Of a DNA stretch of 64,000 nucleotides, positions 37,078 through 59,703 are shown one piece after another; position 1 is the first letter of the stretch, and each line of letters begins with the position of its first letter. The stretch comes from an uncultured Gammaproteobacteria bacterium (GTDB lineage Bacteria > Pseudomonadota > Gammaproteobacteria > Pseudomonadales > Cellvibrionaceae). Made by a program: the position numbers and the translations under genes. The notes below the pieces were generated by a model. It saw only the letters and a program-made list of their open reading frames with translations. It was not told the origin of the DNA and did no database searches. The stretch lies in contig CBHTVU010000001.1 in the NCBI GenBank assembly GCA_966096785.1, positions 8,850-72,849 of the forward strand, given 5' to 3'.

Positions 37078-37321
37078 AAAAGCAGCTGCAACTGTTGCAA
37101 AGAAAACATCAATTAAAGCCGCAAATAAAATAAAGAATAAGATTGTTGGGGACTTATATTCTAGGTCGCCAGAGGCTAAGGCTATCTATAAGAATCGTTG
37201 GTACTATAAACATCATACTAACAACCTAAAAAAGCAAATGGAGTATGATAAAAAGCACGATGAAAAGAAGCGACTAGCCTTTATTGAATACTATAATAAA
37301 AAATACCCACCACCAAAATGA
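37043..37321 (+). CDS. highly basic Lys-rich protein
   Basis: 92 aa, starts MAKKKNSRKPIKKAAATVAKK. Overlaps the upstream ORF by 35 nt. Confidence 0.4.
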   Translation: MAKKKNSRKPIKKAAATVAKKTSIKAANKIKNKIVGDLYSRSPEAKAIYKNRWYYKHHTNNLKKQMEYDKKHDEKKRLAFIEYYNKKYPPPK

Positions 37322-38163
37322 GCAAAACTTTTGTAATTGGCGATATACACGGTGCCCATAAAGCGCTTGAGCAGTGCCTTGAGCGTTGTGGGTTTGATTA
37401 TGAGAATGATACTTTAATTGCTTTAGCTGATTATTGTGATGGCTGGCCTTATGTTTATGAATGTATTGAAATCCTTCTGCGCATTGTCAATTTGATCCCT
37501 TTGCTTGGAAATCATGATCAATGGCTTAGATATTGGTTAGAAACTGGCGTTCACCCTGTTAATTGGAGCCAGGGCGGTAAGGGCACTGTAACATCATATT
37601 TACGGAATTCAGGTAAGGATATTGATCATTATAGAGCATTTTATGTTTATAATCAGAACGGTCGCCCTGTAGAGTGTTATGAATACGCCGAATTTAATTT
37701 TACAGACGTTCCTCCGTCTCACCAAGCATTTTTCAGATCCTTACACCTTTACTATAAAGACGATAAGAATCGCCTATTCGTACATGCGGGCATGTATAAT
37801 AAAAATCTTACACTAAAAGAGAATCAGCAGCAATCACCAGCTGATTTTTATTGGGATAGGAAATTATGGAATAAGGCAAAGAGCGCAAAGGGTGCCAAGA
37901 TGAAATTTGCTGAACCGCTCAGTGAAATATTCATTGGCCATACAGCAACCACTCAATGGACTACGAAGGAAATAAGAACCGACGCCGGCATAATAATCCC
38001 TAAAGGTGACCCAATTACAACACCAATGCACGCTGACATTATATGGAACCTGGATACTGGTGCCGGCGCCAATGGCAAATTAACAATCATGGATGTTGAT
38101 ACCCATGAGTATTGGCAGTCTGATTTGGTAAATACATTTTATGGCGATTATAAACCTAGATGA
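37318..38163 (+). CDS. calcineurin-like metallophosphatase (Ser/Thr phosphatase / ApaH type)
   Basis: 281 aa. VIGDIHG, ALADYCDGWP (GDxxDRG variant), LLGNHD, FVHAG and IGHT appear in the canonical order. Confidence 0.8.
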   Translation: MSKTFVIGDIHGAHKALEQCLERCGFDYENDTLIALADYCDGWPYVYECIEILLRIVNLIPLLGNHDQWLRYWLETGVHPVNWSQGGKGTVTSYLRNSGKDIDHYRAFYVYNQNGRPVECYEYAEFNFTDVPPSHQAFFRSLHLYYKDDKNRLFVHAGMYNKNLTLKENQQQSPADFYWDRKLWNKAKSAKGAKMKFAEPLSEIFIGHTATTQWTTKEIRTDAGIIIPKGDPITTPMHADIIWNLDTGAGANGKLTIMDVDTHEYWQSDLVNTFYGDYKPR

Positions 38164-43743: not shown

Positions 43744-43815
43744 CGCGCGGTAGAGCAGGGGCAGCTCGGTAGGCTCATAACCTATAGGTCGGTGGTTCGA
43801 ATCCATCCCGCGCAA
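43744..43815 (+). tRNA. tRNA-Met (anticodon CAT) with initiator (fMet) hallmarks
   Basis: Hand-folded cloverleaf: acceptor CGCGCGG/CCGCGCA with a C1-A72 mismatch; D-stem GAGC/GCTC (A11:U24); anticodon loop CTCATAA; T-arm GGTGG-TTCGAAT-CCATC. Closely parallels E. coli tRNA-fMet. No encoded CCA. Confidence 0.85.
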
Positions 43816-43885
43816 CAGTCTTTTTAGCGATGAAAGCAGAAGAGGTTAAAGTAACATTTGTTTAATTCGTATTAATTCTGCTAAT

Positions 43886-44906: not shown

Positions 44907-45452
44907 ATGATTCAACACAAGTTAACACCTGATAGCGCAGAGAGATTGCGGGCGCTATTGGAAACTGATATTGCACAGTACACAGAAAAGATCAATGAAT
45001 TTCAACAAAAGAAACTTGATTTGCTTAATGAGCTTGCGAATCTGACAAACTCTATGATAAGCGCGGGTTTTACACCAATAAACCTAAGCCAGCCAGCATT
45101 GCCGTCGCCAACGCAACCTGAACAGCCATTAACACCAACAGAGCCGACAATTGATATACCCAAGCTGGGGAGATACCGTAAAGGCGATGACTGGAGCTTA
45201 AGGGACAAAGCGATTTACATTTTACTAAAAGAGTCAATAGCGCGAAAAGAGAATGCGGCGCTACTATCCACAGATATTACAGATAGGATTGTAGAGATTG
45301 AACCCGATTATTCAAAAATCAAAAACATATCAACAATTATTGGCCAAAATAGCCCTAAGTTATTTACAAGGCTTGAATCAGATGGCAGAAGGCTATTAGT
45401 AAAATTGACAAACCCCAGAAAAGCCTACGAGTTAATATTTGATGAAGAATAA
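44907..45452 (+). CDS. hypothetical protein
   Basis: 181 aa. N-terminal coiled coil, Pro-rich linker. Confidence 0.5.
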   Translation: MIQHKLTPDSAERLRALLETDIAQYTEKINEFQQKKLDLLNELANLTNSMISAGFTPINLSQPALPSPTQPEQPLTPTEPTIDIPKLGRYRKGDDWSLRDKAIYILLKESIARKENAALLSTDITDRIVEIEPDYSKIKNISTIIGQNSPKLFTRLESDGRRLLVKLTNPRKAYELIFDEE

Positions 45453-45457
45453 CTAAT

Positions 45458-45475
45458 GGGAGGGGTACCCCTCCC
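45458..45475 (+). other. 18-nt perfect palindrome between genes
   Basis: GGGAGGGGTACCCCTCCC, 9 nt before the next ATG. No U-tract. Confidence 0.4.
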
Positions 45476-45484
45476 TCAAACTAT

Positions 45485-45691
45485 ATGCGTATTAAGCTTG
45501 CAAAGATCGTGTCCGAAGAGCAGTATTTGCAGTATGTACAGCGGCGGGCAAGCCTGGCAAACCGCCATAAATACGAAATACGCGCTCATTCTAAAGAGAT
45601 CAACGAACTGAACTTACGTATAATTGAATGGATAAACCGTCATGATAAAGTTAATCCGGTTCAGGTCGATGAATTGCATAAATCTCATTGA
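45485..45691 (+). CDS. hypothetical protein
   Basis: 68-aa helical ORF. Confidence 0.45.
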   Translation: MRIKLAKIVSEEQYLQYVQRRASLANRHKYEIRAHSKEINELNLRIIEWINRHDKVNPVQVDELHKSH

Positions 45692-45693
45692 TA

Positions 45694-45921
45694 ATGAACT
45701 CAAAACCGCAAGTAATGACAGTAGACCAATTTTTTGAGAAACACCCCTATATTACAGCTGCTGGCTTATCCAAAAAATCTGGCGTATCTTACCAAGCGAT
45801 TCGGCTTGAAATAGCCGGGAAATACTCTGATCCTAAGCGCATAGAGTATCTTGAAAAGGCAATACATCAGATGGGTAAAGAATTACAGGCCGTAAAGCTT
45901 AACCAACCGGCGAATACTTAA
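45694..45921 (+). CDS. small HTH-like protein
   Basis: ATG at 45694 (the track start at 45688 is TTG). ITAAGLSKKSGVSYQAIRLEIAG looks like a helix-turn-helix. Confidence 0.4.
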   Translation: MNSKPQVMTVDQFFEKHPYITAAGLSKKSGVSYQAIRLEIAGKYSDPKRIEYLEKAIHQMGKELQAVKLNQPANT

Positions 45922-45940
45922 TCATTAATAAATTAACATT

Positions 45941-46261
45941 ATGAAACCACTATTGTTATCCTTAACGCTACTGCTGTCGTGTAAATGCCTAACCGCCCAA
46001 ATCAAGTTACAAAAAGAGGAAGGCAAACCTATTATGATCTTACACAACGCGCCAGCCTATAAAATCATAGATACTGCCGCGAAGTATTTTAATTATCAGG
46101 TAGTTTATCGGTTTAATAAAGAACGTATCAATGATCCTTGGGCCGGAACAATGCCTTTGCAAAGTGTTGATAAGGTAATGACTGGTATTGCATATGCCCA
46201 GGATGGTTTATGTTACACTATAAAAAACAATAAACTAATTGTTGAATTGGTGGAAAATTGA
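45941..46261 (+). CDS. secreted protein resembling the C-terminal (STN/DUF4974-like) domain of FecR-type anti-sigma factors
   Basis: 106 aa. Signal peptide MKPLLLSLTLLLSCKCLTAQ. LHNAPAYKIIDTAAKYFNYQVVYRF...WAGTMPLQSVDKVMTGIAYAQDGLCYTIKNNKLIV follows the pattern I recall for Bacteroidota FecR C-termini (F.n.pL..vL..l...Y.v.i.f....ftg.f......vl..i......l.y.i.g..i.i). Confidence 0.4.
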   Translation: MKPLLLSLTLLLSCKCLTAQIKLQKEEGKPIMILHNAPAYKIIDTAAKYFNYQVVYRFNKERINDPWAGTMPLQSVDKVMTGIAYAQDGLCYTIKNNKLIVELVEN

Positions 46262-46266
46262 CAGTA

Positions 46267-47214
46267 ATGAAGCTCAACAAAAACTACAAAACCGCTCTAA
46301 TCTTAGTTCTTAAGTCAAAACAGTTTTTAGCATTAATAAAGGCTGCAAAATTATTTAAGTTCGCGAAGCCGTTTATTGCAATGATTTCTGTTGCTATTTC
46401 ACTGTTTGCTTATTCTTTAACATACAGCATTTCCCTAGCAATTGCCTTTATTATTTCTATGTTCGTTCATGAGCTTGGTCATGTGTATGCGATAAACAGA
46501 CTAGGGCTTAAAGCGGGCAGAATGATATTTATACCCTTTTTCGGAGCAATGGTCGGCGCGCCACCAGGCATGGACCGACGCCAAGAGGCCTATGTGGGTA
46601 TCGGTGGCCCATGGGCTGGAACTTTGTTAGCGCTACTGTTCATCGGATGTTATTTGGCCAGCCATAATACATGGTTCTTGCACACAGCTTATTTAGGGCT
46701 TCTTATTAACTTATTCAATATGATCCCTATAACCCCAATGGATGGTGGCCGCATTACACAAGCAATAGGTGGTTATTTCAATGTAATTGGGCTGGGATTG
46801 CTTGTGTTGCTTACCATTGCCTTAGGTAGCCCGTTGCTTTTACTGTTGTGGATTATAGCATTTTTGGATTTACAATGGCTTAATAAAACAACAAAGTTAA
46901 TCGCTGCGCTATTAACTGAAATTGTTTTGATTGTTATGTTATTTACTAAAACCGGCATAAACACTAAAATAGAATTTCGGGGCGTGGTCGTTGACATTAT
47001 CATTGGCGCGATTCTGATCACAGCATTTTATGTAAGCAATTTTTTATTGGATAAAGAAGATCAGGAGATAATTAACGAGCGCCACCAAAGACCAGCATTA
47101 GACCCCAAGGCAAAGATAAAATGGTTCATGGTTTGGTTACTAACGACACTATTTCTTTTGGGCGCAATTGGATGGCTGGTAGCATCAACAAACTTATCAC
47201 TGCATGTCAAATAA
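46267..47214 (+). CDS. site-2 protease family (peptidase M50) membrane metalloprotease
   Basis: ATG at 46267. Polytopic. HExxH in a TM helix (FVHELGHVYA, 46468-46482), then IPFFGA and NLFNMIPITPMDGGR (the NxxPxxxxDG motif). Confidence 0.8.
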   Translation: MKLNKNYKTALILVLKSKQFLALIKAAKLFKFAKPFIAMISVAISLFAYSLTYSISLAIAFIISMFVHELGHVYAINRLGLKAGRMIFIPFFGAMVGAPPGMDRRQEAYVGIGGPWAGTLLALLFIGCYLASHNTWFLHTAYLGLLINLFNMIPITPMDGGRITQAIGGYFNVIGLGLLVLLTIALGSPLLLLLWIIAFLDLQWLNKTTKLIAALLTEIVLIVMLFTKTGINTKIEFRGVVVDIIIGAILITAFYVSNFLLDKEDQEIINERHQRPALDPKAKIKWFMVWLLTTLFLLGAIGWLVASTNLSLHVK

Positions 47215-47365
47215 ATGTCATAAAATACCACACAAGACCTGGCGTAGCGCTGAAGCACATCAAACGCATCTTAAGCATGACCTGGAAACCGACAGCCATA
47301 TATATCGCTGTTCCAAATGCGGGTGGTTGCATATAACTACCACTGAAAAGTATTTTAAAGCATGA
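47204..47365 (+). CDS. possible small zinc-ribbon protein (53 aa)
   Basis: MSNKCHKIPHKTWRSAEAHQTHLKHDLETDSHIYRCSKCGWLHITTTEKYFKA. Its stop overlaps the next ATG (ATGA at 47362-47365) and its start overlaps the S2P gene end. Below the track cutoff. Confidence 0.4.
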   Translation: MSNKCHKIPHKTWRSAEAHQTHLKHDLETDSHIYRCSKCGWLHITTTEKYFKA

Positions 47366-47739
47366 TGCAGTTCAAAACGCTGAAGCATAAAACGCTGCCC
47401 GGCACGTATGGGTATCCAGCGAATGACCCAATTGAGCTGTGTCATATTAGCATTCCCAGGCTGTTGGGGATGAATAACACCATGGAAAGCCTTAGAAATT
47501 ACTGGCATGATCAACCATTAATACTGGAGCAGCTTAATGATTATGACCTTGTTACATACACACTTATTCCTGGTTTAAGTGCCATTGATATTGCAGCAGG
47601 TTTGATGAAAATCCATCATCATGATTATATAACTGACGAGATAGTTTATAAAGAAGATGAGTTGCTGGAGTTGCTTCACGCCTGGGGCCTCCCGCTACCT
47701 GACTGGGAAGGCAATGCAAAGCGCATAACTAACAAGTAA
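47362..47739 (+). CDS. hypothetical protein
   Basis: 125-aa ORF. Confidence 0.5.
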   Translation: MMQFKTLKHKTLPGTYGYPANDPIELCHISIPRLLGMNNTMESLRNYWHDQPLILEQLNDYDLVTYTLIPGLSAIDIAAGLMKIHHHDYITDEIVYKEDELLELLHAWGLPLPDWEGNAKRITNK

Positions 47740-47742
47740 ACT

Positions 47743-47961
47743 ATGAACTCCCCTCACACCGGCAAGCCAATGGAGCGCATGACAAAGCGCGTTAGCGTAG
47801 AATTCAAAGGTGATCATATATTGATCGATTGGATGTATTATTATTGTCCAGATGCTGGCCTTGAGTATACCAATGAAGAAACCGATGATATGAATCTCAA
47901 CCAGGTTTATCTCGCTTATTCAAAGAAGCACAATATCCCAATTGAACAAGTAAAACCTTAA
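47743..47961 (+). CDS. hypothetical protein
   Basis: 72-aa ORF. Confidence 0.45.
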   Translation: MNSPHTGKPMERMTKRVSVEFKGDHILIDWMYYYCPDAGLEYTNEETDDMNLNQVYLAYSKKHNIPIEQVKP

Positions 47962-47965
47962 TGCC

Positions 47966-48241
47966 ATGTCAACAATATTTATAGTATACCTACAATGTGA
48001 TATTTGTAAGGTAGAATTTGGCAAAGATAATCCGCAGACCAGGGCTTATATCATAAGAAATATGGCAGCGGAAGCTGGATGGACGGCTAATACAAATTTA
48101 GACCTGTGCCCCGAGTGCCGTAATTCAAAAATAAAAAAGTATAACTACGATATAAATACTAACACCAATATAAAAAGACGAAAAGCCTTAGCTGCTGCAA
48201 TGAAGCGCGATGAAAGAGATCAGTCAACAAATAGCAAATAA
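47966..48241 (+). CDS. zinc-ribbon protein
   Basis: 91 aa with CDICKVEF...CPECRN and a basic tail. Confidence 0.45.
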   Translation: MSTIFIVYLQCDICKVEFGKDNPQTRAYIIRNMAAEAGWTANTNLDLCPECRNSKIKKYNYDINTNTNIKRRKALAAAMKRDERDQSTNSK

Positions 48242-48497
48242 AATTAACAGTCGGCTTAAATCGTTGCGCATTAGTAAGACCGAGTTTGCAGCAATGGTAA
48301 AGGTTCCACCTTCTGCCGTATCAAAATGGCTGAGTGGGTCACATAACTTTACTATTGCAACACTTGTAGAGATACAAAGCGCTTTAATGATTAATTTTTT
48401 TGATCTGGGCGATAGCAAAAGTGATAAAGCTTGTTTCCCTTGCAATTATGAGTTTTGTATTTATGACAGCAAAACACAAGTACCATATTACATTTGA
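48210..48497 (+). CDS. XRE-family HTH protein
   Basis: 95 aa; RISKTEFAAMVKVPPSAVSKWLSGSHNFTIATLVEIQSAL. Confidence 0.6.
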   Translation: MKEISQQIANKINSRLKSLRISKTEFAAMVKVPPSAVSKWLSGSHNFTIATLVEIQSALMINFFDLGDSKSDKACFPCNYEFCIYDSKTQVPYYI

Positions 48498-49140
48498 AGA
48501 GCTGGCTATGCGGGGCGCGCAGGTCCTGGCAAAACAAGGTCCGGTAACTTATAAACAGGCATTAGCACAAATCAATAGAATTATGTCAAACAGCAAAGGT
48601 TATAACGCCTACGGCCAAATCTACCGCAACATTAAATCATGTGGCGACAATGCCCCCAAGCTCCAGCAGATCCTGGATGATCACATGAGCCTTTTTGTTA
48701 TGGCAAAAGGATCAACGCATAATCATCAGGCATGGCCAGGCGGCTATTTACAGCATGTTGCCGATTGTATGACCATAGCCAGGCGGTTGCTCAACAACAC
48801 TCCGCCCAGCTGGCCGGTACCGTTCTCCTTGGGCAGTGTTGTGCTCGTACTGTTCCTGCATGACATTGAGAAGCCATTTATGCAGAAGCGCATGGCAGCT
48901 GATCCTGAAATGCGATTATGGAGCGATCAACAGCGCATGGCGTTTAGAAGAAGCTTAATGGCTGAATACAAGATTGCTATTACAGAGGAAGAGGACATCG
49001 CACTTACCCATATACATGGCGAAGGAGGGGCTTATAGCAGCAAGCAGCGTGTCATGAACGAGCTGGGTGCCCTGTGCCATGCTGCTGACGTGCTAAGCTC
49101 CAGGTTGTGGTGGAATAGAAATAATCCGAAAAATATCTAA
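48463..49140 (+). CDS. HD-domain phosphohydrolase-like protein
   Basis: H...HD pattern (GGYLQHVADCM...VLVLFLHDIEKPF...HIHGEGG). The start is uncertain: ATG 48463 (35-nt overlap) or ATG 48508. Confidence 0.55.
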   Translation: MTAKHKYHITFEELAMRGAQVLAKQGPVTYKQALAQINRIMSNSKGYNAYGQIYRNIKSCGDNAPKLQQILDDHMSLFVMAKGSTHNHQAWPGGYLQHVADCMTIARRLLNNTPPSWPVPFSLGSVVLVLFLHDIEKPFMQKRMAADPEMRLWSDQQRMAFRRSLMAEYKIAITEEEDIALTHIHGEGGAYSSKQRVMNELGALCHAADVLSSRLWWNRNNPKNI

Positions 49141-49145
49141 TCATT

Positions 49146-49661
49146 ATGATCAAACACGTTCGCAACCTTGCACCAGAGCTTAGGGCCGCAATAAACACCA
49201 TACGCAGAGAACTGGCAACTGATGAGTTATATTTTAAAGCATGGCAATTTACCATGTCCAGGACGTTTCACAAAAAGATTACTGAATGGGCAGAAGCTCA
49301 AGGTGTTTCAGATAGCATCATGCAGGACAAGGAACACACGCTAAGTGATGTGTGTTTGCAGGCAGCTGCTGAGTATATAACTAAGTTTATAGGTGATATA
49401 AAGCAAGAGGATGAACGCGAATTGCTGTCCCCGCCTGGTGATCACATAAAAGAAACAATGAATGAGCTGGGCATAGATTTGCCATTGTTTGTCATTAAGA
49501 TGGGCATATCTGCCGAGGGCGCAAAAGATCTCTTAGATGGCAAAGCGCCGCTTACTGAAGCCATTGCCCGGCGGCTGGAGTTGACATTTAACACTGATGC
49601 CCAGTACTGGCTGAACCTGGAGACTAATTACCGGGAGAAATTACAACAACTAAACACTTAG
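49146..49661 (+). CDS. HigA/VapI-type antitoxin-like HTH protein with an N-terminal extension
   Basis: 171 aa. The C-terminal PPGDHIKETMNELGIDLPLFVIKMGISAEGAKDLLDGKAPLTEAIARRLELTFNTDAQYWLNLETNY matches the HigA antidote pattern. No HigB-like partner is adjacent. Confidence 0.6.
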   Translation: MIKHVRNLAPELRAAINTIRRELATDELYFKAWQFTMSRTFHKKITEWAEAQGVSDSIMQDKEHTLSDVCLQAAAEYITKFIGDIKQEDERELLSPPGDHIKETMNELGIDLPLFVIKMGISAEGAKDLLDGKAPLTEAIARRLELTFNTDAQYWLNLETNYREKLQQLNT

Positions 49662-50379: not shown

Positions 50380-50808
50380 ATGTACAAATACATACTAAGC
50401 TTAGTAACGCTTATTCCCGTGTACAGTCTTGCTCAAATGAACTCAGTACCCAGCTCTAACCCCATCGATAACCCCGCTAATAAAATGGCTATGGCGGTGC
50501 GCGCAACGGGTGCAAATATGGATATTAGCGTCCAGCAAGGCCCATGTTGCTTTGGCGATAAGGCTGCCGTTTTGTTTGTGGATTTAGGCAAGCTGCCGCC
50601 CGACCAATACAAAGACAAACAACTTAGGGACAGTATAATAAATGCCAGTAAGTTCTTATATATTGAAGACGCCTTGCAACAAGGCTGTCAAGAAGTGCGT
50701 TTCTTTATATCAAAGAAGGCCTTTTTGGGCGGCGCTGACAGCAGAACTTACACTGTTCTGCAGCTATTAGATGAAAGGCGTAAGGCCCGGTCCGCAATGA
50801 ACAAATAA
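50380..50808 (+). CDS. secreted hypothetical protein
   Basis: 142 aa with signal peptide MYKYILSLVTLIPVYSLAQ. Confidence 0.5.
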   Translation: MYKYILSLVTLIPVYSLAQMNSVPSSNPIDNPANKMAMAVRATGANMDISVQQGPCCFGDKAAVLFVDLGKLPPDQYKDKQLRDSIINASKFLYIEDALQQGCQEVRFFISKKAFLGGADSRTYTVLQLLDERRKARSAMNK

Positions 50809-50817: not shown

Positions 50818-51042
50818 ATGAGCCCGTTTGAGAATTTACTTGTCTGCTTGTTAGTATTGCTATACCTTATACTGAAGTTTTATATATGGCAGGCAAAATT
50901 ATTTGATAATATCCCCATAAGTGATACAAAGGAATGGATCTGGACGCTTCCCACAGGGTACGGCATGGCTATAACGTTCACAAACGTTGATGGCAAACGG
51001 GGCTGTTGGCGTATGGGCTTTTTTAGGATAAGAAAGCAATAG
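50818..51042 (+). CDS. small membrane protein
   Basis: 74 aa with an N-terminal TM (LLVCLLVLLYLILKFYIW). Confidence 0.4.
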   Translation: MSPFENLLVCLLVLLYLILKFYIWQAKLFDNIPISDTKEWIWTLPTGYGMAITFTNVDGKRGCWRMGFFRIRKQ

Positions 51043-51421: not shown

Positions 51422-52099
51422 ATGAAGCTGGCTCTTAAATTATCAGTTGCGCTCAATGTTCTATTTTTACTATTTTTTATTGGCAAACGTGTTTATTACA
51501 CTTATGGCGCTCCAGGCAAAGCTGCAGCGACGAATTACGAAGAAACAATATTCGCCAAAGCGTCTGTTCAAAACCAGCTGCCGATAGATAGCAATGATGT
51601 TGTATTTATTGGTAATTCTTTAACAGAAGGCTTTCCGGTCACAGAGTATTTTGCGAACGCAAAAAACCGTGGCGTCGGGGGCAGCGAAACCCGGCATGTA
51701 CTTGCCAGGATAGGCCCTATAGTAAATGGGCGCCCTAAGAAGATCTTTTTAGAAATAGGCGTAAATGACCTGGCTGCGGGGGTGTCTATAAATGACGCAT
51801 TGGCCAAATACAATACAATTATTAGCACCATTCAAACCCGGTCACCACGCACAGCTATATACATACAGTCCATTTTCCCAGTCTGCAAAGAGTATAGCAA
51901 CTTATTACCCGCTATCAAAGAATTTAATTCTAAGCTGGCACAACAGTATGGACATATTGCAGGAATTACATATTTGAATATTTACCCAAGCTTGGTTAAA
52001 AATAACAAATTAGACAGCGCACTAACGCATGATGGCATTCACTTAAACGCAAAAGGGTATCAAATATGGAAAAAGGAAATAGAACATGCAGTAAACTAA
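51422..52099 (+). CDS. SGNH/GDSL-family hydrolase (esterase), membrane-anchored or secreted
   Basis: 225 aa. N-terminal hydrophobic anchor. Block I VVFIGNSLTEG, block II GVGGSET, block III EIGVNDL, block V HDGIHLNAKGY. Confidence 0.8.
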   Translation: MKLALKLSVALNVLFLLFFIGKRVYYTYGAPGKAAATNYEETIFAKASVQNQLPIDSNDVVFIGNSLTEGFPVTEYFANAKNRGVGGSETRHVLARIGPIVNGRPKKIFLEIGVNDLAAGVSINDALAKYNTIISTIQTRSPRTAIYIQSIFPVCKEYSNLLPAIKEFNSKLAQQYGHIAGITYLNIYPSLVKNNKLDSALTHDGIHLNAKGYQIWKKEIEHAVN

Positions 52100-52114: not shown

Positions 52115-52339
52115 ATGGCAAAAATTAGCGCCCTAATCATCAAACAGCTATTTAAAATAATTACGCCTGAAGAGCGTAAAGAACTGGACAACTATGCCGC
52201 AGAGTCAGAAGAAAACAGGCAAATGGTCGAAAAATACACCGACGGTAAAAAGGTGCTGGAAGAGATTAAACTAAGCGAACAATTTTTAAATGAGGAAGAT
52301 TGGTTAAAGATTGAAGCCAATCTGCCCAAAAACACCTAA
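52115..52339 (+). CDS. FecR-N-terminal-like (anti-sigma domain-like) mini-protein, paralogue 1
   Basis: 74 aa. ISALIIKQLFKIITPEERKELDNYAAESEENRQMVEKY follows the Bacteroidota FecR N-terminal pattern (l..kyl.g.ls.eE...l..W...s.eN...f). No TM or periplasmic part. Confidence 0.5.
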   Translation: MAKISALIIKQLFKIITPEERKELDNYAAESEENRQMVEKYTDGKKVLEEIKLSEQFLNEEDWLKIEANLPKNT

Positions 52340-52361: not shown

Positions 52362-52589
52362 ATGCAACGAATCAGTACGCTGATCATTAAATTACGCAAT
52401 AACGAGATTACGCCTGAGGAGCGTATAGAACTGGACGCCTTCGCAGCCCAGTCTGAAGACAATAAAAGATTGGTAGAAGACTATTCCAATTACAGCCATG
52501 TGCTAAAGGAAATAAAGGAATCAGATAAGTACCGTACAGAAGAAAACTGGCAAAGGGTTAAAGCAGGTCTGCCAAAGCCAGCTATGTAA
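52362..52589 (+). CDS. FecR-N-terminal-like mini-protein, paralogue 2
   Basis: ATG at 52362 (MQRISTLIIKLRNNEITPEERIELDAFAAQSEDNKRLVEDY...). Clearly paralogous to 52115..52339. Confidence 0.5.
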   Translation: MQRISTLIIKLRNNEITPEERIELDAFAAQSEDNKRLVEDYSNYSHVLKEIKESDKYRTEENWQRVKAGLPKPAM

Positions 52590-52974: not shown

Positions 52975-53205
52975 ATGATCAACATGAAAACCCGAATTGA
53001 GGAACTCCTGCTAAAAAGGCTGATGCAAATGCTTACTCCTGAAGAAGCCACCCAACTGGAAGACTTCAGAAACCAGTCCGAAGCTAACCGTGAACTGGTG
53101 GATAGCCTAAAGCCTGGCAAGAAGCTATATGACGCTGTAACGTGGAAGCTGGATGTTGAAGGGGCATTAGAAAAAACAAAACAAGAGCTGTTTGGCGACA
53201 GCTGA
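52975..53205 (+). CDS. FecR-N-terminal-like mini-protein, paralogue 3
   Basis: MINMKTRIEELLLKRLMQMLTPEEATQLEDFRNQSEANRELVDSL. A start at 52984 would align best with the other paralogues. Confidence 0.45.
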   Translation: MINMKTRIEELLLKRLMQMLTPEEATQLEDFRNQSEANRELVDSLKPGKKLYDAVTWKLDVEGALEKTKQELFGDS

Positions 53206-54558: not shown

Positions 54559-54585
54559 TCTGACTGTAATTGTTTTATATTTATT

Positions 54586-54621
54586 CCCAGTCAATATATA
54601 CTGACTGGGATTGTTGTTTTT
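54586..54621 (+). terminator. intrinsic terminator
   Basis: CCCAGTCA-ATATATAC-TGACTGGG followed by ATTGTTGTTTTT. Confidence 0.6.
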
Positions 54622-55234
54622 AAGGGCATATACTTATCTGTTAATAAATATTAACACTTAATACCTCAACTATTCTGTTAATATCGCTTGCCAGATTATC
54701 AATAATATTGTAATATTGTGGTGTTGTTACAGCGATAGGATAGTGGTAAAGATAATGTGGTAATGACACAAATAGCTCTTTGGTCGAATAGGTTGGATTG
54801 CTCTAATTACAGATCAGTATTGCTGCTAAGTTGTAAGCACTACAGGCACCTAATAGATGTTAACGTGTTGAGGTAAGTTCGCTAAATGTTAACCACTGGA
54901 TTTAAAGATCAGGCTATTGAGTGTACAGCAATATGAACGCTACAATGTAATTGTAGGTTACCACTTATAACTATATTCTTATAGGTCTTATAACAGCTGG
55001 TAAATATCTGCAACAAACGGTTAAACGGTGTGGGAATGCAATAGGAGTAATTGCATTACAAATGGGTGTTTAACCGGTTAGTAGCCTTAAAGTTTGTTGT
55101 CAACAGTCTGTTACTGTTGTGAAATAATGATTAAAGAGCAATGATTAATGTATATGTCGTTACGCTGTGGAGATAACGCATATACACAGAACAATTGATT
55201 ATCAAAGTGTTTTAATAGTGTTTTTTGAGTCTAA
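54622..55234. other. gene-free AT-rich region with TGTTAA-type repeats and a composite cruciform
   Basis: No ORF of 60 aa or more in any frame. TGTTAA(Y) at 54639, 54676, 54858 and 54887. Nested inverted repeat CGGTTAAAC...AATGCAAT-AGGAGTA-ATTGCATT...GTTTAACCG (55019-55076). Confidence 0.5.
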
Positions 55235-55283
55235 CCCCATATAATATCGTTTATATGGGGTTTTGTGTTTATAAAACACTTAT
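55235..55283 (+). promoter_or_regulatory. hairpin + conserved box cassette EC01
   Basis: Stem CCCCATATA/TATATGGGG, then TTTTGTGTTTATAAAACACTTAT|ATG(55284). Confidence 0.6.
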
Positions 55284-55757
55284 ATGAAATTCTTTAATAA
55301 TTGCAAAACGCTTGAAGAGGTCAAAAAGCTGTACAAAAAGCTTGCATTAGAACACCATCCTGACAAGGGCGGCAATACAGAAACTATGCAAACGATAAAT
55401 ACTGAATATGCGTTTATATGTGCAAAGCTCTTAAAGGGTGAAAACCTAACGGATGAACAGATCAATGAAGAAATGAATTTATCTGAAGAACTTAGGCAAG
55501 CAATTGAGCAAATTATACATTTGCCGGGTATTACTATTGAGGTAGTTGGTTATTACATTTGGGTTACTGGTAACACCTACCCAGTAAGAAACGAATTAAA
55601 GAGCGCAAAGTTTGTTTATCATGGTACAAAAGAATGTTGGTATTATGCCAATGCAAAATTTAAAGTAAGAGGTGGTAAAAAAACATTAGAAGAAATAAAG
55701 GCTAAGTATGGCAGCGCGACTGTTCACAAGTTTAAAACCAGCAAGGAAATTAATTAG
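55284..55757 (+). CDS. J-domain (DnaJ-like) co-chaperone protein
   Basis: 157 aa. LEEVKKLYKKLALEHHPDKGGNTETMQTINTEYAFI contains the HPD motif. Confidence 0.85.
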   Translation: MKFFNNCKTLEEVKKLYKKLALEHHPDKGGNTETMQTINTEYAFICAKLLKGENLTDEQINEEMNLSEELRQAIEQIIHLPGITIEVVGYYIWVTGNTYPVRNELKSAKFVYHGTKECWYYANAKFKVRGGKKTLEEIKAKYGSATVHKFKTSKEIN

Positions 55758-55763
55758 CACAAA

Positions 55764-55805
55764 GCCCGCAATGTTGCGGGCTTTGTTATTATAAAACACT
55801 TGTAT
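55764..55805 (+). promoter_or_regulatory. cassette EC02
   Basis: Stem GCCCGCA/TGCGGGC, then TTTGTTATTATAAAACACTTGTAT|ATG(55806). Confidence 0.6.
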
Positions 55806-56063
55806 ATGTTGAACTATGATAAATTAATTGCACTCAACCCCACGGTGTATTCTAAGTTTACCAACTCATTAGGGCAAGAAATAGAGTTTGTTGAGCATCC
55901 AACTAAAGGAGAAGATTATCCCGTTATTTGCGTATGTCATGCCCTTAAACTTGCAGCGTGTAGTGACTTCTACGAAACGACTGATATGTTAGCCGATCAT
56001 AAGGAGTATGAACCTAAATTTATTGACGGTCAATTTTGGATTGGGAATTTCTTACACGAATAG
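55806..56063 (+). CDS. hypothetical protein
   Basis: ATG at the cassette-defined position (MLNYDKLIAL...). The track start at 55800 is a TTG inside the box. Confidence 0.55.
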   Translation: MLNYDKLIALNPTVYSKFTNSLGQEIEFVEHPTKGEDYPVICVCHALKLAACSDFYETTDMLADHKEYEPKFIDGQFWIGNFLHE

Positions 56064-56102
56064 GGCGCAATTTGCGCCCTATGTTATTTTAAAAACACTT
56101 AT
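56062..56102 (+). promoter_or_regulatory. cassette EC03
   Basis: Stem AGGGCGCA/TGCGCCCT, then ATGTTATTTTAAAAACACTTAT|ATG(56103). Confidence 0.6.
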
Positions 56103-56267
56103 ATGACTACAACAGAGCAGGAAATTGAATTAACGAAAATTCAATCAATAAATATTGCGGCTAAAGCGCTGGCGCAATCTGCGTTTTTGATAGGGGTTTC
56201 TTTAGACGTGCTGTTGCCTATGGCAACCGCATTAGCAGAAAAAGAGTTAATAAAACTAAAAGGGTAG
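56103..56267 (+). CDS. hypothetical small protein (54 aa)
   Basis: MTTTEQEIELTKIQSINIAAKALAQSAFLIGVSLDVLLPMATALAEKELIKLKG. Framed by cassettes EC03 and EC04; below the track cutoff. Confidence 0.45.
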   Translation: MTTTEQEIELTKIQSINIAAKALAQSAFLIGVSLDVLLPMATALAEKELIKLKG

Positions 56268-56304
56268 CAATTATGCTACCCTTTGTTATTTATAAAACAC
56301 TTAT
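56262..56304 (+). promoter_or_regulatory. cassette EC04
   Basis: Stem GGGTAGCA/TGCTACCC (covers the preceding stop), then TTTGTTATTTATAAAACACTTAT|ATG(56305). Confidence 0.6.
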
Positions 56305-56391
56305 ATGAATCGTACTATCATGATCAATTTAGCTATTACAGTACTTGTTGTTTCTGCTAACATATTAGCACAGGTTGTACGGCATTTATAG
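56305..56391 (+). CDS. possible 28-aa hydrophobic micro-protein
   Basis: MNRTIMINLAITVLVVSANILAQVVRHL, with the ATG at the exact cassette position. Confidence 0.3.
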   Translation: MNRTIMINLAITVLVVSANILAQVVRHL

Positions 56392-56429
56392 TTGCAGTCA
56401 TGCACTCATTACGCAGTATAACACAGGAA

Positions 56430-56472
56430 CCCGGCTCAATGCCGGGTTTTGTTATTTATAAAAACACTTATT
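56430..56472 (+). promoter_or_regulatory. cassette EC05
   Basis: Stem CCCGGC/GCCGGG, then TTTTGTTATTTATAAAAACACTTATT|ATG(56473). Confidence 0.6.
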
Positions 56473-56748
56473 ATGCCTATAACATTTAATACGGGCGGGT
56501 ATTCGTATTGCACCATTGTACAGGATGCGATCGGTTGCCTGCATATCTGGGAGGGACAATGTATACCTACAAATAACCCAACATTGCCTAAAGTTGATGG
56601 CAATGAGTGTGATTTGTTTATAGAAAATGAATCGGATGTTAAGAACACGTTAGAGTATTTAACGGATGACGAAAGGGAATATATAAATAAAGGGTTCGCA
56701 ATACAGGTAAAAACTATTCCCGACGATTTATTGCTAAAAGATTATTAG
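56473..56748 (+). CDS. hypothetical protein
   Basis: MPITFNTGGYSYC... The track extension from 56449 reads through the box. Confidence 0.55.
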   Translation: MPITFNTGGYSYCTIVQDAIGCLHIWEGQCIPTNNPTLPKVDGNECDLFIENESDVKNTLEYLTDDEREYINKGFAIQVKTIPDDLLLKDY

Positions 56749-56780
56749 AACGGTCTCAGGATAAACAGAAGTACAAACAA

Positions 56781-56827
56781 CCCTACGCATGTCTATGCGT
56801 GGGGTTTTGTATTTATAAAACACTTAT
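56781..56827 (+). promoter_or_regulatory. cassette EC06
   Basis: Stem CCCTACGCAT/ATGCGTGGGG with loop GTCT, then TTTTGTATTTATAAAACACTTAT|ATG(56828). Confidence 0.6.
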
Positions 56828-57022
56828 ATGAATATTGAACAGATAAAGGCTAATTTACCAAAAAACATGCATGAAATAGACCGTAAGGAATACCTACGGT
56901 TACATAAACGTATAATTGAGATTGAAACAACCGGGTATAATAAACATGAATTGGAACCATTGCGTAACAGTGCCTTTAATATTATTAATCCATATATTTT
57001 AGATAGTAATTACAAAGGATAG
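56828..57022 (+). CDS. hypothetical protein
   Basis: 64-aa ORF framed by cassettes. Confidence 0.55.
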   Translation: MNIEQIKANLPKNMHEIDRKEYLRLHKRIIEIETTGYNKHELEPLRNSAFNIINPYILDSNYKG

Positions 57023-57058
57023 GGGCCATTTGGCCCTTTTTTATTTAAAAACACTTAT
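57023..57058 (+). promoter_or_regulatory. cassette EC07
   Basis: Stem GGGCC/GGCCC, then TTTTTTATTTAAAAACACTTAT|ATG(57059). Confidence 0.55.
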
Positions 57059-57310
57059 ATGAAATACGGCTTCAGCATAGTGAACACAATGCGCACTTAT
57101 AGCATTGAATTACGTGAACGCAATTACCCGGTATTTGCGGGTAGATACAATGCATATATGGCGGTTTATGGGCCGTTAAGCGGCGAATATATGGGCTTAA
57201 TTGAAACGCCTATAAAATTAGATATTACAGAAAATGATGTACCTGAGTTGCTGCTGAATGGAGAAAAGTTTGTAAAAGATAATGCATGTTGCAAGGTATC
57301 GGTTTGGTAA
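57059..57310 (+). CDS. hypothetical protein
   Basis: 83-aa ORF framed by cassettes. Confidence 0.55.
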   Translation: MKYGFSIVNTMRTYSIELRERNYPVFAGRYNAYMAVYGPLSGEYMGLIETPIKLDITENDVPELLLNGEKFVKDNACCKVSVW

Positions 57311-57345
57311 ATAATTGACGGTTTTTTAGCAGGTAGTACAAACAA

Positions 57346-57392
57346 CCCTATACATTTCTATGTGTGGGGTTTTGTTATTTAAAAACACTTGT
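57346..57392 (+). promoter_or_regulatory. cassette EC08
   Basis: Stem CCCTATACAT/ATGTGTGGGG (two G-U pairs), then TTTTGTTATTTAAAAACACTTGT|ATG(57393). The 5' flank GTACAAACAA is shared with EC06. Confidence 0.6.
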
Positions 57393-57593
57393 ATGAATAT
57401 GCCATATTTCAAACCGGGGTTATTACATCTTATTTTTGAGAATGAAACCGGTGAACAATTTATAGATGTAAATGGTTACCCTACTTTACAGTTAGCAGAA
57501 GTTGCAGCCGAATATTATAAACGCGGTAGATTTAGAATGTCAGGTTCAATAGTGGTAGGAGTTTATATTTGTCAGACAATTAAGCCCGCCTAA
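57393..57593 (+). CDS. hypothetical protein
   Basis: MNMPYFKPGLLHLIF... The track extension from 57360 lies inside the hairpin and box. Confidence 0.55.
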   Translation: MNMPYFKPGLLHLIFENETGEQFIDVNGYPTLQLAEVAAEYYKRGRFRMSGSIVVGVYICQTIKPA

Positions 57594-57625
57594 TTGGCGG
57601 GCTTTTGTATTATAAAAACACTAAA
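57584..57625 (+). promoter_or_regulatory. cassette EC09
   Basis: Stem GCCCGCC/GGCGGGC, then TTTTGTATTATAAAAACACTAAA|ATG(57626). Confidence 0.6.
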
Positions 57626-57883
57626 ATGATCACAATCTATAATTGGCATGAACCAACCACATCCTTAAGCCGCTGTAAGCCTATAGAGTGCAACAATACA
57701 ATGTCATTGGCCCGCTCATTTAGCCAAATAGGCAAGGCAAAGCTGGACAGCTCAATTGTTAGTATAACCCTTAAAGACGAAAACACGGGTAAAACTATAC
57801 GTATTGAATTTGATAATGAGGCAAGGAAAAAAATATTGGAATGGTTTAATATTGAACAGGAAATAGCAAAAGCCCGCGTTTAG
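57626..57883 (+). CDS. hypothetical protein
   Basis: MITIYNWHEPTTS... Start set by the cassette. Confidence 0.55.
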   Translation: MITIYNWHEPTTSLSRCKPIECNNTMSLARSFSQIGKAKLDSSIVSITLKDENTGKTIRIEFDNEARKKILEWFNIEQEIAKARV

Positions 57884-57910
57884 CGGGCTTTTGCTATTAT
57901 AAACACTTAT
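57871..57910 (+). promoter_or_regulatory. cassette EC10
   Basis: Stem AGCCCGC/GCGGGCT (the preceding stop lies in the hairpin), then TTTGCTATTATAAACACTTAT|ATG(57911). Confidence 0.6.
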
Positions 57911-58186
57911 ATGAAGTACATTTTTTTGTTACTGTTAGCATTCAACAGCACTAAAGGCATTGCACAAGATAAAAAGCCTATAGTACAATGCAAAGGAACT
58001 ACAGTGAAAGGCGTGCAATGTATGCGCAAAGCAAAGGAAGGCACAAAGGACAACGCTTATTGCAGCCAACACAACCTTGACGCGCCGCGCTGCGCAGGTC
58101 ATACTGGCAGCGGTGTGCGCTGTAAAAGAATAGTCGCAAAGGAAGGGGATAAATGTCATGACCACGTTTTTCAAAAACGCGCATAA
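57911..58186 (+). CDS. secreted Cys/His-repeat (putative zinc-binding) protein
   Basis: 91 aa. Signal-like N-terminus and two repeats: GVQCMRKAKEGTKDNAYCSQH and GVRCKRIVAKEGDKCHDH. Confidence 0.5.
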   Translation: MKYIFLLLLAFNSTKGIAQDKKPIVQCKGTTVKGVQCMRKAKEGTKDNAYCSQHNLDAPRCAGHTGSGVRCKRIVAKEGDKCHDHVFQKRA

Positions 58187-58208
58187 TCACCAGCTGAAAC
58201 CACATGAA

Positions 58209-58254
58209 CCCCGAACAGTGTTCGGGGTTTTGCTATTTATAAAACACTAGCAAA
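58209..58254 (+). promoter_or_regulatory. cassette EC11
   Basis: Stem CCCCGAA/TTCGGGG, then TTTTGCTATTTATAAAACACTAGCAAA|ATG(58255). Confidence 0.6.
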
Positions 58255-58719
58255 ATGAATACAGAAATTAAAACAGTAAGTGATAAGCAATATCAAGTAA
58301 CAAACACAGGTACTTACTACCATATTGAAACAAATTTGCAGGTTATAGAAGTACTTGAACAATGTCGCCTAAATAATACACGCATTCGCTTATTTTTAGG
58401 CGATACAATAACCGGTAAAGTATGGCCTGAACTTCACGATGTAACAGGCTACGTCAGTCGTTCAACGGGCGTTGTAAAGGTGCCAATTCTGCGTTATAAT
58501 AGTATTGCTGTTGGTGGTGGCGCAATACTTGATCATTGCATCATGAAAATAAGCGATACCAAAGGCAACGTATTGTATAAGGCTGGTAATTATAAGGAGC
58601 CGGTAATTGAGATAAAAGGCAATGAGGCGCAAGGCATACAGGTAATTTATGATAACGAACCGATTGCAAACTGTAAAACATTAAAAGAGGCGAACAAACT
58701 AAAAGAACAATTACTTTAA
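58255..58719 (+). CDS. hypothetical protein
   Basis: 154-aa ORF framed by cassettes. Confidence 0.6.
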   Translation: MNTEIKTVSDKQYQVTNTGTYYHIETNLQVIEVLEQCRLNNTRIRLFLGDTITGKVWPELHDVTGYVSRSTGVVKVPILRYNSIAVGGGAILDHCIMKISDTKGNVLYKAGNYKEPVIEIKGNEAQGIQVIYDNEPIANCKTLKEANKLKEQLL

Positions 58720-58757
58720 CCCCCGTAATGGGGGTTTTTGCTTTATAAAACACTTAT
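58719..58757 (+). promoter_or_regulatory. cassette EC12
   Basis: Stem CCCCC/GGGGG with loop GTAAT, then TTTTTGCTTTATAAAACACTTAT|ATG(58758). Confidence 0.6.
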
Positions 58758-59024
58758 ATGAAGCGCAAACATGATTTAATAATCTTTGCAATCTTTGCCG
58801 CCTTGGTGGTAGGGATAATGCTAGGGGCCAAAGGACAACAGGCCATACACAGCCGCAATTGTCCGGTTGCACCTGTAACTCTTACGAATATACTAGCAAG
58901 TAAGGATTATCAAATACAATGTAGTATTGATTCAGTATATGTATTTGATAACAACAGGCTAATAGGCGCTACTTTGTGGGGTAAAGATGGTATTGATTCA
59001 TTGATCTTAAAGGACAACGAATGA
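58758..59024 (+). CDS. small membrane-anchored protein
   Basis: 88 aa with an N-terminal TM (LIIFAIFAALVVGIMLGA). Confidence 0.55.
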   Translation: MKRKHDLIIFAIFAALVVGIMLGAKGQQAIHSRNCPVAPVTLTNILASKDYQIQCSIDSVYVFDNNRLIGATLWGKDGIDSLILKDNE

Positions 59025-59092
59025 AGCCCTACACAGTCGCGCTCCTGTTGCGCCTTGTCTGGTATGCAGTACTGATCTATTGTATTGCTTAA
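59021..59092 (+). CDS. possible 23-aa hydrophobic micro-protein
   Basis: MKPYTVALLLRLVWYAVLIYCIA. ATGA overlap with the upstream stop; its own stop abuts the EC13 hairpin. Confidence 0.25.
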   Translation: MKPYTVALLLRLVWYAVLIYCIA

Positions 59093-59130
59093 CCCCCGTT
59101 TGGGGGTTTTGTTATTTTAAAAACACTTAT
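59093..59130 (+). promoter_or_regulatory. cassette EC13
   Basis: Stem CCCCC/GGGGG with loop GTTT, then TTTTGTTATTTTAAAAACACTTAT|ATG(59131). Confidence 0.6.
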
Positions 59131-59703
59131 ATGAAATCAATACTAGATAAGACTAATGAAGCTCCCGCTAATACATTGCAATTTGGCAAGTTTAATGTCA
59201 ATACTTCCGCGCAAGCAATGACATTAATCGCTTATAGCGACGTACCACATTTGCACACATCTAACATTCCTTTCAGGCAGCTACAGTATGTTGCAGAATG
59301 TGAGAATTTTATCGACTTCTGCGCATGTTTGCGCATTATTCGCGGCTATAATGGTTTTGAAGCGGAAGAGGTTATTAAAAAAGGAACGCCACACTTTAAC
59401 ATTAAACGCTGGTATCCTAAAGGCAACGGCAATCATGGTATGAACATGTTTAACTTTCAGATTGCCCGCGAATATTCTGCTACCTTTTATATTCGATACG
59501 TTACACTGTTTAACAACAATAAGTTAATAGAGGTAGAAGGGGAGTATGGCGATTGTGAAGAGTTTACCCCAAATGATTTTGAGGATACAATGTTGTGTCT
59601 TAAGCATTTACTAAAACCTAGCGAATTTAATATTGAAAAATTGCCGTATGAGTTTCAAGGGCAAACACAATACTCTTATAGTGTGCGCTTTTGCTGGACT
59701 TAA
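59131..59703 (+). CDS. hypothetical protein
   Basis: MKSILDKTNEAPANTLQFG... The track extension from 59080 reads through the hairpin. Confidence 0.6.
   Translation: MKSILDKTNEAPANTLQFGKFNVNTSAQAMTLIAYSDVPHLHTSNIPFRQLQYVAECENFIDFCACLRIIRGYNGFEAEEVIKKGTPHFNIKRWYPKGNGNHGMNMFNFQIAREYSATFYIRYVTLFNNNKLIEVEGEYGDCEEFTPNDFEDTMLCLKHLLKPSEFNIEKLPYEFQGQTQYSYSVRFCWT

Follow-up and report, generated by a model that had tools for sequence, protein, structure and literature searches.

A secreted stand-alone FecR C-terminal domain encoded beside a site-2 protease in a phage, and its possible part in cell-surface signalling

Why would a phage encode one end of a bacterial trans-envelope sensor as a separate secreted protein, with a gene for an intramembrane protease directly behind it? 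The question is raised by a locus at positions 45941–47365 of a 64-kb stretch of contig CBHTVU010000001.1, referred to below as the window (the contig measures 79 kb, and ~15 kb of it lie outside the analysis). The first gene of the locus, ORF A (45941..46261, + strand), is an ATG open reading frame (ORF) of 106 amino acids which, according to the profile and fold comparisons given below, encodes a secreted, stand-alone domain of the FecR_C (STN-like) type, found at the C-terminus of FecR anti-sigma factors. The second encodes an M50-family site-2 protease (S2P). Bacteroidota keep dozens of SusC-like loci for transport and glycan use under the control of cell-surface signalling by FecR and extracytoplasmic function (ECF) sigma factors. 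The set of genes described here suggests that the phage tampers with this signalling from the outer membrane to the genes.

The window is phage DNA, because it contains genes for a portal protein (phrog_6547, E 3e-64) and a large terminase (phrog_6681, E 1e-83); both are encoded, together with a virion structural protein, in a minus-strand block at 1–30 kb. The plus-strand block at 30–64 kb consists of tightly packed small early/accessory genes. No close relative of the window at the DNA level was found among deposited phages.

The two ends of FecR as separate phage proteins

The N-terminus of ORF A, MKPLLLSLTLLLSCKCLTA|QIK, resembles a signal peptide. The predicted peptide, as read from the sequence, covers residues 1–19 (45941..45997) and would be cut off between Ala and Gln; no member of the four-protein ORF A family deviates at A19 or Q20, and residues 1–15 are disordered in the AlphaFold2 model. 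Alternatively, ORF A may be a lipoprotein, with Cys14 in a weak lipobox that is not kept in the relative P0122. The mature domain (45998..46258) was matched by the Pfam family FecR_C (PF16344) with 20.0 bits (E 7e-4), residues 32–101 aligning with profile positions 2–70 of 70. An exhaustive phmmer search of 1.84 billion representatives yielded two genuine relatives and a profile search added a third: P0122 (68% identity), P0125 and P0126 (both ~30%). All are ~105–109 amino acids long, align with ORF A from end to end and have a common signal peptide. P0125 and P0126 score 30.1 and 34.2 bits against FecR_C, above the 24.4-bit cutoff, and P0122 scores 21.7 bits; on this profile evidence ORF A is a FecR_C member transitively, via homologues above the cutoff. 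The other two of the four matches from the exhaustive search, P0123 and P0124, are repeat proteins and were judged spurious.

Profile–profile comparison gave the same answer. We collected nine genuine FecR proteins of Bacteroidota, taken from loci in which an ECF sigma factor is encoded too (the seven annotated ones carry a SusC/TonB-dependent receptor gene as well). The ORF A family aligned by hhalign with five of these proteins at E 9e-7 (columns 256–328 of 331) and with all nine at E 6e-7 (columns 267–336 of 341, that is, the last ~70 residues), with a probability of 91–92% in both comparisons. AlphaFold2 with the four-sequence alignment produced a model of ORF A with a predicted local distance difference test score (pLDDT) of 86 and a predicted template modelling score (pTM) of 0.76; the single-sequence model (pLDDT 42) was unusable. 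In the model an N-terminal β-hairpin is followed by a β-α-β repeat STN core (strands 20–26, 29–38, 53–56, 66–72, 90–95 and 98–103; helices 39–49 and 76–86). The top PDB matches in Foldseek were 4m0h/4m0n, the periplasmic domain of the Parabacteroides distasonis anti-sigma factor BDI_1681, and 6ovk_R, the C-terminal signalling domain (CCSSD) of PupR, at a root-mean-square deviation of 2.1–2.6 Å over 75–77 columns. Periplasmic domains of FecR-type anti-sigma factors took ranks 1–4; secretin N0 and transducer signalling domains followed lower down (transducer at rank 19). Four independent lines, namely Pfam, the relatives, hhalign and AlphaFold2/Foldseek, thus concur by homology and modelling that ORF A is a FecR C-terminal STN-like domain. 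The sequence-only reading, which had proposed a secreted protein of this kind, was borne out on this point by profile, profile–profile and fold searches alike.

ORF A is not a full-length FecR-family protein but just a signal peptide and the C-terminal domain. It resembles the domains of PF16344, PupR (6OVK), FoxR (residues 248–328) and BDI_1681 (4M0H/4M0N) by profile, profile–profile and fold comparison, and a periplasmic location is predicted for both. In contrast to FecR proteins, it stands alone, has its own signal peptide, is encoded by a phage and has neither the sigma-binding (anti-sigma) domain of the N-terminus nor the transmembrane helix nor the β-solenoid at the centre of FecR (PF04773), for which no Pfam match was found among 61 ORFs of the window. 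ORF A is a real gene under purifying selection, because its nonsynonymous divergence (dN) from its 67%-identical homologue in phage contig L008 is 0.20 with synonymous sites saturated; it diverges faster than its neighbours (dN 0.05–0.11). The FecR_C-like family is very small, all its members come from metagenomes and they occur on phage-like contigs only. A word-indexed protein search with ORF A returned only the self-match, the exhaustive phmmer search no cellular FecR at E 1e-3, and PDB sequence searches with ORF A and its family profile nothing meaningful. Nothing was retrieved by tblastn of ORF A against phage records or by a pattern scan of IMG/VR for the family, and a BFVD fold search gave no credible viral analogue.

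The opposite end of FecR appears to be represented as well. Three plus-strand mini-proteins of 74, 75 (from ATG; an upstream TTG at 52311 is possible) and 76 amino acids, encoded at 52115..52339, 52362..52589 and 52975..53205, form one family with further members in the related phage contigs L008/L009 and L013 (the homologue of the third lies at 10945–11313 in L013). Columns 7–73 of the family aligned by hhalign with columns 7–71 of the nine FecR proteins, the cytoplasmic segment preceding the transmembrane helix, at E 3.2e-5 and a probability of 73%; with only five FecR proteins the match was weaker (E 0.004, probability 8%). Among 7,671 ORFs, the best match of the mini-protein hidden Markov model outside the family was a genuine FecR N-terminus. 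The evidence that the mini-proteins correspond to the sigma-binding segment of FecR, as the sequence-only reading had suggested, is therefore of moderate strength. They lack a transmembrane segment, and the second is 91% identical in L009 with a ratio of nonsynonymous to synonymous substitution rates (dN/dS) of 0.09. No match to the mini-proteins was found in Pfam, NCBIfam or PDB sequences, nor by tblastn of one of them against plasmids or by pattern scans for the family in IMG/VR and GTDB genomes. In L013, a 164-amino-acid protein (10438–10932) consists of a homologue of a small membrane protein of the window (50818–51042) fused to a FecR-N-like mini domain, so that in this lineage the sigma-binding-like segment would be membrane-tethered. 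Just upstream of the mini-proteins, the plus strand encodes two further exported proteins. The first (50380–50808; 142 amino acids) has a signal peptide of the Q-rule type, matches no family and is only 49% identical in L008; the second (51422–52099) is a GDSL-type lipase/esterase with an N-terminal hydrophobic anchor.

The host is likely a member of Bacteroidota, because several predicted signal peptides (ORF A and the proteins at 50380, 57911 and 1793–3007) finish with A|Q, which corresponds to the Bacteroidetes Q-rule (PMC5837995). The same host is indicated by the FecR_C-like family, which matched here only Bacteroidota FecR proteins, and by the ECF sigma factor of a sister phage (below), the best matches of which are mostly Bacteroidota sigma factors.

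The adjacent protease and gene order in related phages

The stop codon of ORF A (46259–46261) is followed, six bases past it, by the ATG of the M50 gene (46267..47214, + strand), leaving 5 nucleotides between the genes; an in-frame TTG at 46258 overlaps the stop codon. No intergenic gap in the region 44907–49661 exceeds 35 nucleotides, and the M50 gene is probably co-transcribed with ORF A in a tightly packed array. Scans for sigma-70 promoters and terminators around the locus gave no signal above shuffled expectation. The M50 product is a polytopic protein of 315 amino acids that matches Pfam Peptidase_M50 (PF02163) with 45.5 bits (cutoff 27.2), and its core aligns with the structures of M. 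jannaschii S2P (MjS2P; 3b4r, E 1e-10) and SpoIVFB (8vjl). Both S2P motifs lie in hydrophobic segments: the catalytic zinc-binding HELGH (residues 68–72, with H68, E69 and H72; 46468..46482), which aligns with the HELGH in MjS2P, and the N148...D159-G-G motif NLFNMIPITPMDGG (46708..46749), in which alignment to the MjS2P motif places the third zinc ligand at Asp159. HELGH and D159 are invariant across nine homologues, as are N148-P154, G160 and G161; judged from the invariance of H68, E69, H72 and D159 the protease is very probably active. Coordinates and motifs agree with the sequence-only reading.

As in E. coli RseP, M. jannaschii S2P (3B4R) and B. subtilis SpoIVFB (8VJL), the phage enzyme combines a membrane-helix HExxH with NxxPxxxxDG. 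It differs from RseP in having no PDZ tandem (no PDZ match in Pfam, and only ~35 residues from the HELGH helix to the next hydrophobic helix) and from SpoIVFB in having no CBS domain. Its N-terminal segment is conserved and rich in lysine, and some four additional hydrophobic segments lie towards its C-terminus. It is a member of an uncharacterised subfamily of phages, Patescibacteria and other bacteria. Homologues P0003–P0009 are 35–51% identical. The closest (42–51%) come from phage fragments L006 and L007 and from cellular metagenome-assembled contigs L001 and L003; a 35% identical relative lies at 6001–6909 of L023, a 388-kb jumbo-phage JGI contig with a T4-type Gp23 capsid gene. Further members were found in large IMG/VR contigs (L014, L015 and L016, of 607, 75 and 199 kb), and the nearest full-length relatives in GTDB genomes belong to an unclassified metagenome-assembled genome and to Saccharibacteria/Patescibacteria. 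The PDZ-less subfamily therefore recurs in several unrelated large phages. S2Ps are rare in phages, as had been claimed: tblastn gave weak partial matches in 2 of 50,697 deposited phage records, and a pattern scan of IMG/VR found three loci. GC content does not mark the M50 gene as foreign. Three M50 proteins of the phage group have common motifs (e.g. HELGHV.AIN) unlike those of the nearest cellular homologues, so the gene appears to have been retained within the phage group.

The closest relative of the phage is represented by contigs L008–L011, in which most genes are 50–98% identical to and collinear with those of the window. There the FecR_C-like gene is followed by a zinc-ribbon gene, a gene for an ECF sigma factor and then genes common to both phages, whereas in the window M50 comes after the FecR_C-like gene, and the zinc-ribbon gene, an unrelated ORF of 125 amino acids and the same common genes follow in turn. 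Comparison of the two orders identifies M50 as a clean insertion of ~950 bp relative to L008, placed between the FecR_C-like and zinc-ribbon genes, and the unrelated ORF occupies the syntenic slot of the sigma gene. The sister-phage sigma factor (197 amino acids with Sigma70_r2 and r4_2; L008 8885–9478, also in L009, L010 and L011) is thus encoded one gene downstream of the ORF A orthologue, which strengthens the link to ECF signalling drawn in the sequence-only reading. When it was compared with plasmids, the best matches were mostly Bacteroidota sigma factors; in 9 of the 12 fetched loci matching it a FecR gene lies beside the sigma gene, in most cases followed by a SusC/TonB-dependent receptor gene. 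No sigma factor was found in any of the six frames of the window.

Which of these genes belong together may be judged from their distribution. The window has the FecR_C-like gene, three mini-protein genes and M50. L008/L009 have the FecR_C-like gene, mini-proteins and the ECF sigma gene without M50. L013 has the FecR_C-like gene and two mini-proteins, and L012 (6 kb only) the FecR_C-like gene and a weak mini-protein match, both without M50 and ECF sigma. Conversely, L006, which covers the whole equivalent region, and L007 (9 kb only) have M50 and none of the other three. The IMG/VR contig L185 has a weak FecR_C-like candidate, upstream of an HD-like gene, and no mini-protein, M50 or ECF sigma gene. 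An association of S2P with FecR_C-like genes across phages was accordingly not found: M50 is missing from L008–L011, L012 and L013, all of which carry the FecR_C-like gene, and L006 and L007 show the reverse. The conserved pairing is that of the FecR_C-like gene with the mini-proteins, joined by the ECF sigma gene in one lineage, and the protease does not travel along. It is this association, much more than the protease, that connects ORF A with FecR/ECF signalling. Among the relatives, the M50, FecR_C-like, zinc-ribbon, sigma and HD-like genes turn up next to one another repeatedly and in changing order; for instance, M50 in L007 and the FecR_C-like gene in L013 are followed by homologous genes. 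No ECF or FecR genes were found beside the M50 relatives in L006, L007, L001, L003, L023 or the GTDB genomes.

Possible effects on host signalling

What the sequences show is the identity of the domains, the signal for secretion, the catalytic motifs, how the genes are ordered and conserved, and which of them occur together. In known systems, FecR is cleaved by Prc and then by RseP (PMC8144685), which has a PDZ size filter (PMC7728848), and FecR's N-terminal fragment, which regulates FecI, activates or inhibits its sigma factor (PMC9249621). Current data indicate that contact with the transducer protects the anti-sigma factor (PMC11637429). Given this published work on FecR and transducers, a free periplasmic FecR_C domain should compete for the signalling domains and expose the host anti-sigma factor, and a protease that lacks RseP's PDZ size filter could finish the cascade or get round it.

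We therefore tentatively favour, with confidence a little short of even, the view that the phage carries a toolkit against FecR/ECF cell-surface signalling in which ORF A is a periplasmic decoy for TonB-dependent transducers and, together with the protease, brings about activation. ORF A would be exported via Sec and act in the periplasm. By attaching there to the N-terminal signalling domains that SusC-like TonB-dependent transducers of the host possess, it would uncouple host FecR proteins from these transducers. In the cytoplasm, the mini-proteins would copy the sigma-binding N-terminal segment of FecR. The output gene would be variable, encoding a PDZ-less S2P in this phage and, in its sister, an ECF sigma factor. 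With the transducer's protection of the host anti-sigma factors removed by the decoy, the phage protease might then cut their transmembrane segment, perhaps without prior trimming since it has no PDZ filter, and ECF sigma activity would be freed without the natural signal and modulated by the mini-proteins. Participation of the protease in this kit is plausible. What we infer here is every binding partner, the protein that the protease cuts, whether signalling is raised or lowered, and how the phage gains from it.

Several points weigh against this proposal. ORF A's own FecR_C score (20.0 bits) is below the gathering cutoff of 24.4 bits. M50 and the FecR_C-like gene are adjacent in this phage only, L006 and L007 having M50 without the latter, and the M50 subfamily occurs in jumbo-phage, IMG/VR and cellular genomes (Patescibacteria and others) without ECF/FecR neighbours. 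Lacking the periplasmic PDZ tandem, M50 is not an RseP-type (group I) S2P, and we know of no substrate on record and no characterised member of its subfamily. Among the 61 plus-strand ORFs at 30–64 kb, Pfam gave no match to a TonB-dependent transducer, TonB or a site-1 protease; compared with a complete cell-surface signalling system (transducer, FecR and ECF sigma factor), the window thus has neither a sigma factor nor a TonB-dependent receptor match, and the transducer would have to be a host protein. The isolated STN subdomain of PupR was unstable and did not bind the transducer domain in pull-downs (PMC7186176). On the other hand, FoxR 256–328 did bind in two-hybrid assays (PMC11637429), and ORF A has an extra N-terminal β-hairpin in its model, a counterpoint to the failure of the PupR subdomain. 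Finally, whether the outcome is activation or blockade is not derivable from sequence. The sequence-only reading had gone as far as to see separate mimics of every layer of the pathway. The co-occurrence of the FecR_C-like and mini-protein genes agrees with it, but the protease is neither conserved with them nor of the RseP type, and the claim about every layer therefore stays conjectural.

The strongest competing explanation, although on balance somewhat unlikely, is that the adjacency is incidental: FecR_C-like and mini-proteins would target ECF signalling, whereas M50 would be an independent single-gene moron at a recombination hot spot, acting for example on remnant signal peptides, a FecR-unrelated host membrane regulator or a phage membrane protein. 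This would account for M50 in L006 and L007 without a FecR_C-like gene and at different positions, for its clean ~950-bp insertion relative to L008, for its subfamily's presence in jumbo phages and cellular genomes without ECF context and for the shuffled mosaic of the region. It leaves to chance, however, that so rare a phage gene sits 5 nucleotides from a copy of an S2P-substrate-class domain, FecR-type anti-sigma factors being the best-known class of S2P substrates, in a group of phages that have FecR-N-like genes and an ECF sigma factor besides. Nor does it sit well with the motifs that set the phage-group M50 proteins apart from cellular ones, as of a gene retained by these phages.

The toolkit might also work with the opposite sign and silence host signalling, which we regard as unlikely: the decoy would occupy the signalling domains while the mini-proteins, as a non-degradable anti-sigma factor, would sequester the host ECF sigma factor. 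Having no transmembrane segment, the mini-proteins could not be removed by regulated intramembrane proteolysis. In the classical model the signal is routed via transducer–FecR contact, which a decoy would break, and the N-terminal fragments of some FecR-like proteins, e.g. FpvR, inhibit their sigma factors (PMC9249621). Yet a co-encoded S2P, or the ECF sigma factor of the sister phage, suits activation better, and if contact protects the anti-sigma factor, titrating the transducer should activate (PMC11637429). An experimental parallel is the FoxA signalling domain, a free periplasmic STN-fold domain that perturbs transducer/anti-sigma contact as proposed for ORF A; when overproduced, it blocks cell-surface signalling by shielding FoxR (PMC11637429). 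Unlike that domain, ORF A resembles the anti-sigma side of the interface and not the transducer side (Foldseek ranks 1–4 versus 19). It should therefore titrate transducers, and the predicted outcome is the opposite one.

Rather improbably, the parts might regulate the phage's own transcription, with the mini-proteins and the zinc-ribbon protein partnering an ECF sigma factor by which the phage times its middle/late genes; its gene would here be outside the window or lost, leaving remnants. Such a circuit is suggested by the conserved zinc-ribbon gene flanking the ECF sigma gene in the sister phage, by ECF-type sigma factors in other Bacteroidota phages, including crAss-like ones, and by the 15 kb of contig outside the window. 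A secreted periplasmic domain would nevertheless be without function in a circuit confined to the cytoplasm, purifying selection acts on all parts though there is no sigma gene within 64 kb, and the syntenic slot of the sigma gene is filled by an unrelated ORF of 125 amino acids.

Most doubtful is superinfection exclusion by masking of a SusC-like TonB-dependent phage receptor from the periplasm, locking or down-regulating it as the small T5 lipoprotein Llp does FhuA: ORF A, like Llp and Cor proteins, is a small exported phage protein with (predicted) contact to a TonB-dependent outer-membrane protein (PMC9586334), it is possibly a lipoprotein (Cys14), has a fold that binds TonB-dependent transducers and evolves faster than its neighbours (dN 0.20 against 0.05–0.11), as expected of a receptor-specific factor, but it is related to Llp or Cor neither in sequence nor in fold, the lipobox is not kept in P0122, the signalling domain is flexibly tethered and its binding is not known to close the transporter, the target of Llp is the barrel and plug of a receptor that does not signal whereas that of ORF A, which is linked to sigma/anti-sigma parts, would be a signalling domain, and the cytoplasmic mini-proteins and the sister-phage ECF sigma factor would be left unexplained.

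Taken further, the decoy reading of ORF A leads to a bolder scenario, to which we give appreciably less credence than to the decoy itself: a lineage of Bacteroidota phages with a modular kit that dismantles the FecR sensor and commandeers ECF-dependent transcription without an environmental signal. The secreted periplasmic tip would disconnect the sensor from outer-membrane transducers, soluble copies of its sigma-binding end would be supplied separately, and the interchangeable output would be either a phage ECF sigma factor or an unfiltered S2P freeing the host one. Transcription would be directed to host polysaccharide/transporter loci or to the phage's own genes. Interference with host sigma usage is a theme common to phage sigma and anti-sigma factors such as T4 AsiA and the ECF-type sigma factors of crAss-like phages; here, by contrast, what has been copied is both ends of a trans-envelope sensor, of which one is extracytoplasmic. 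The domains themselves are already known, and what is new is the splitting of the sensor into separately encoded ends, the phage carrier and the interchangeable sigma/protease neighbour. Literature searches directed at such genes brought up no account of any FecR fragment or S2P encoded by a phage, and we came across no report of a virus targeting FecR/ECF cell-surface signalling. If ORF A is indeed a decoy, phages interfere from the periplasm with the sensing of nutrients or the expression of receptors, a level of host takeover that would be new, and their proteins would be natural minimal reagents for asking whether transducer contact protects the anti-sigma factor or transmits the signal.

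Neighbouring genes and other features of the window

The locus, as delimited in the sequence-only reading, ends at 47365 and thereby also takes in the zinc-ribbon ORF, which was not mentioned there. This plus-strand gene (47204..47365; 53 amino acids) overlaps the M50 stop codon by 11 nucleotides, and its product has the pattern C5...H32-x3-C36-x2-C39. It is the best-conserved gene of the region, with 90% identity to its counterpart in L008 (8713–8874) at a dN/dS of 0.07 and 78% identity in L007 (4929–5123). In L008 it lies between the FecR_C-like and ECF sigma genes, directly upstream of the latter. The spacing of cysteines and histidine equals that of the HxxxCxxC motif of zinc-binding anti-sigma (ZAS) factors. 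Assignment to these factors was set aside, motif spacing being its sole basis; Pfam gave weak zinc-ribbon-type matches and no anti-sigma family. The 125-amino-acid ORF (47362–47739) was likewise considered as a degenerate sigma factor and dropped, for it has no Pfam match and its homologues lie elsewhere in related phages.

The operon-like array holding ORF A and M50 is preceded by an 800-bp non-coding gap with a tRNA-Met (CAT) gene (43744–43816, + strand). Matches to Pfam among the accessory plus-strand ORFs at 30156–63666 include Cpn10 co-chaperonin, a DnaJ domain, DUF3560, a glycosyltransferase and the Acb2/Tad1 hairpin domain (anti-CBASS/Thoeris sponge family), as well as a NinI-like phosphatase (37318–38163) and a HigA-like helix-turn-helix protein (49146–49661); PADLOC defence models gave no relevant match. 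On the minus strand, a 1,965-amino-acid ORF (14870–20767) lies between the terminase and structural genes, its sole match being phrog_9854, a PHROG of unknown function.

A recurrent non-coding cassette was also noted. Some 14 intergenic spacers within ~54560–63180 (e.g. 55758–55805, 56064–56102, 58720–58757, 60508–60576 and 62462–62512) carry one and the same cassette, a GC-rich hairpin followed by GGGGTTTTGT(A/T)ATTTATAAAACACTTAT and finishing exactly at the next ATG, which has the look of a repeated terminator/promoter unit serving small early genes. Its reverse-complement half, TACAAAACCC, is found just upstream of the starts at 44907, 50380, 51422 and 53601.

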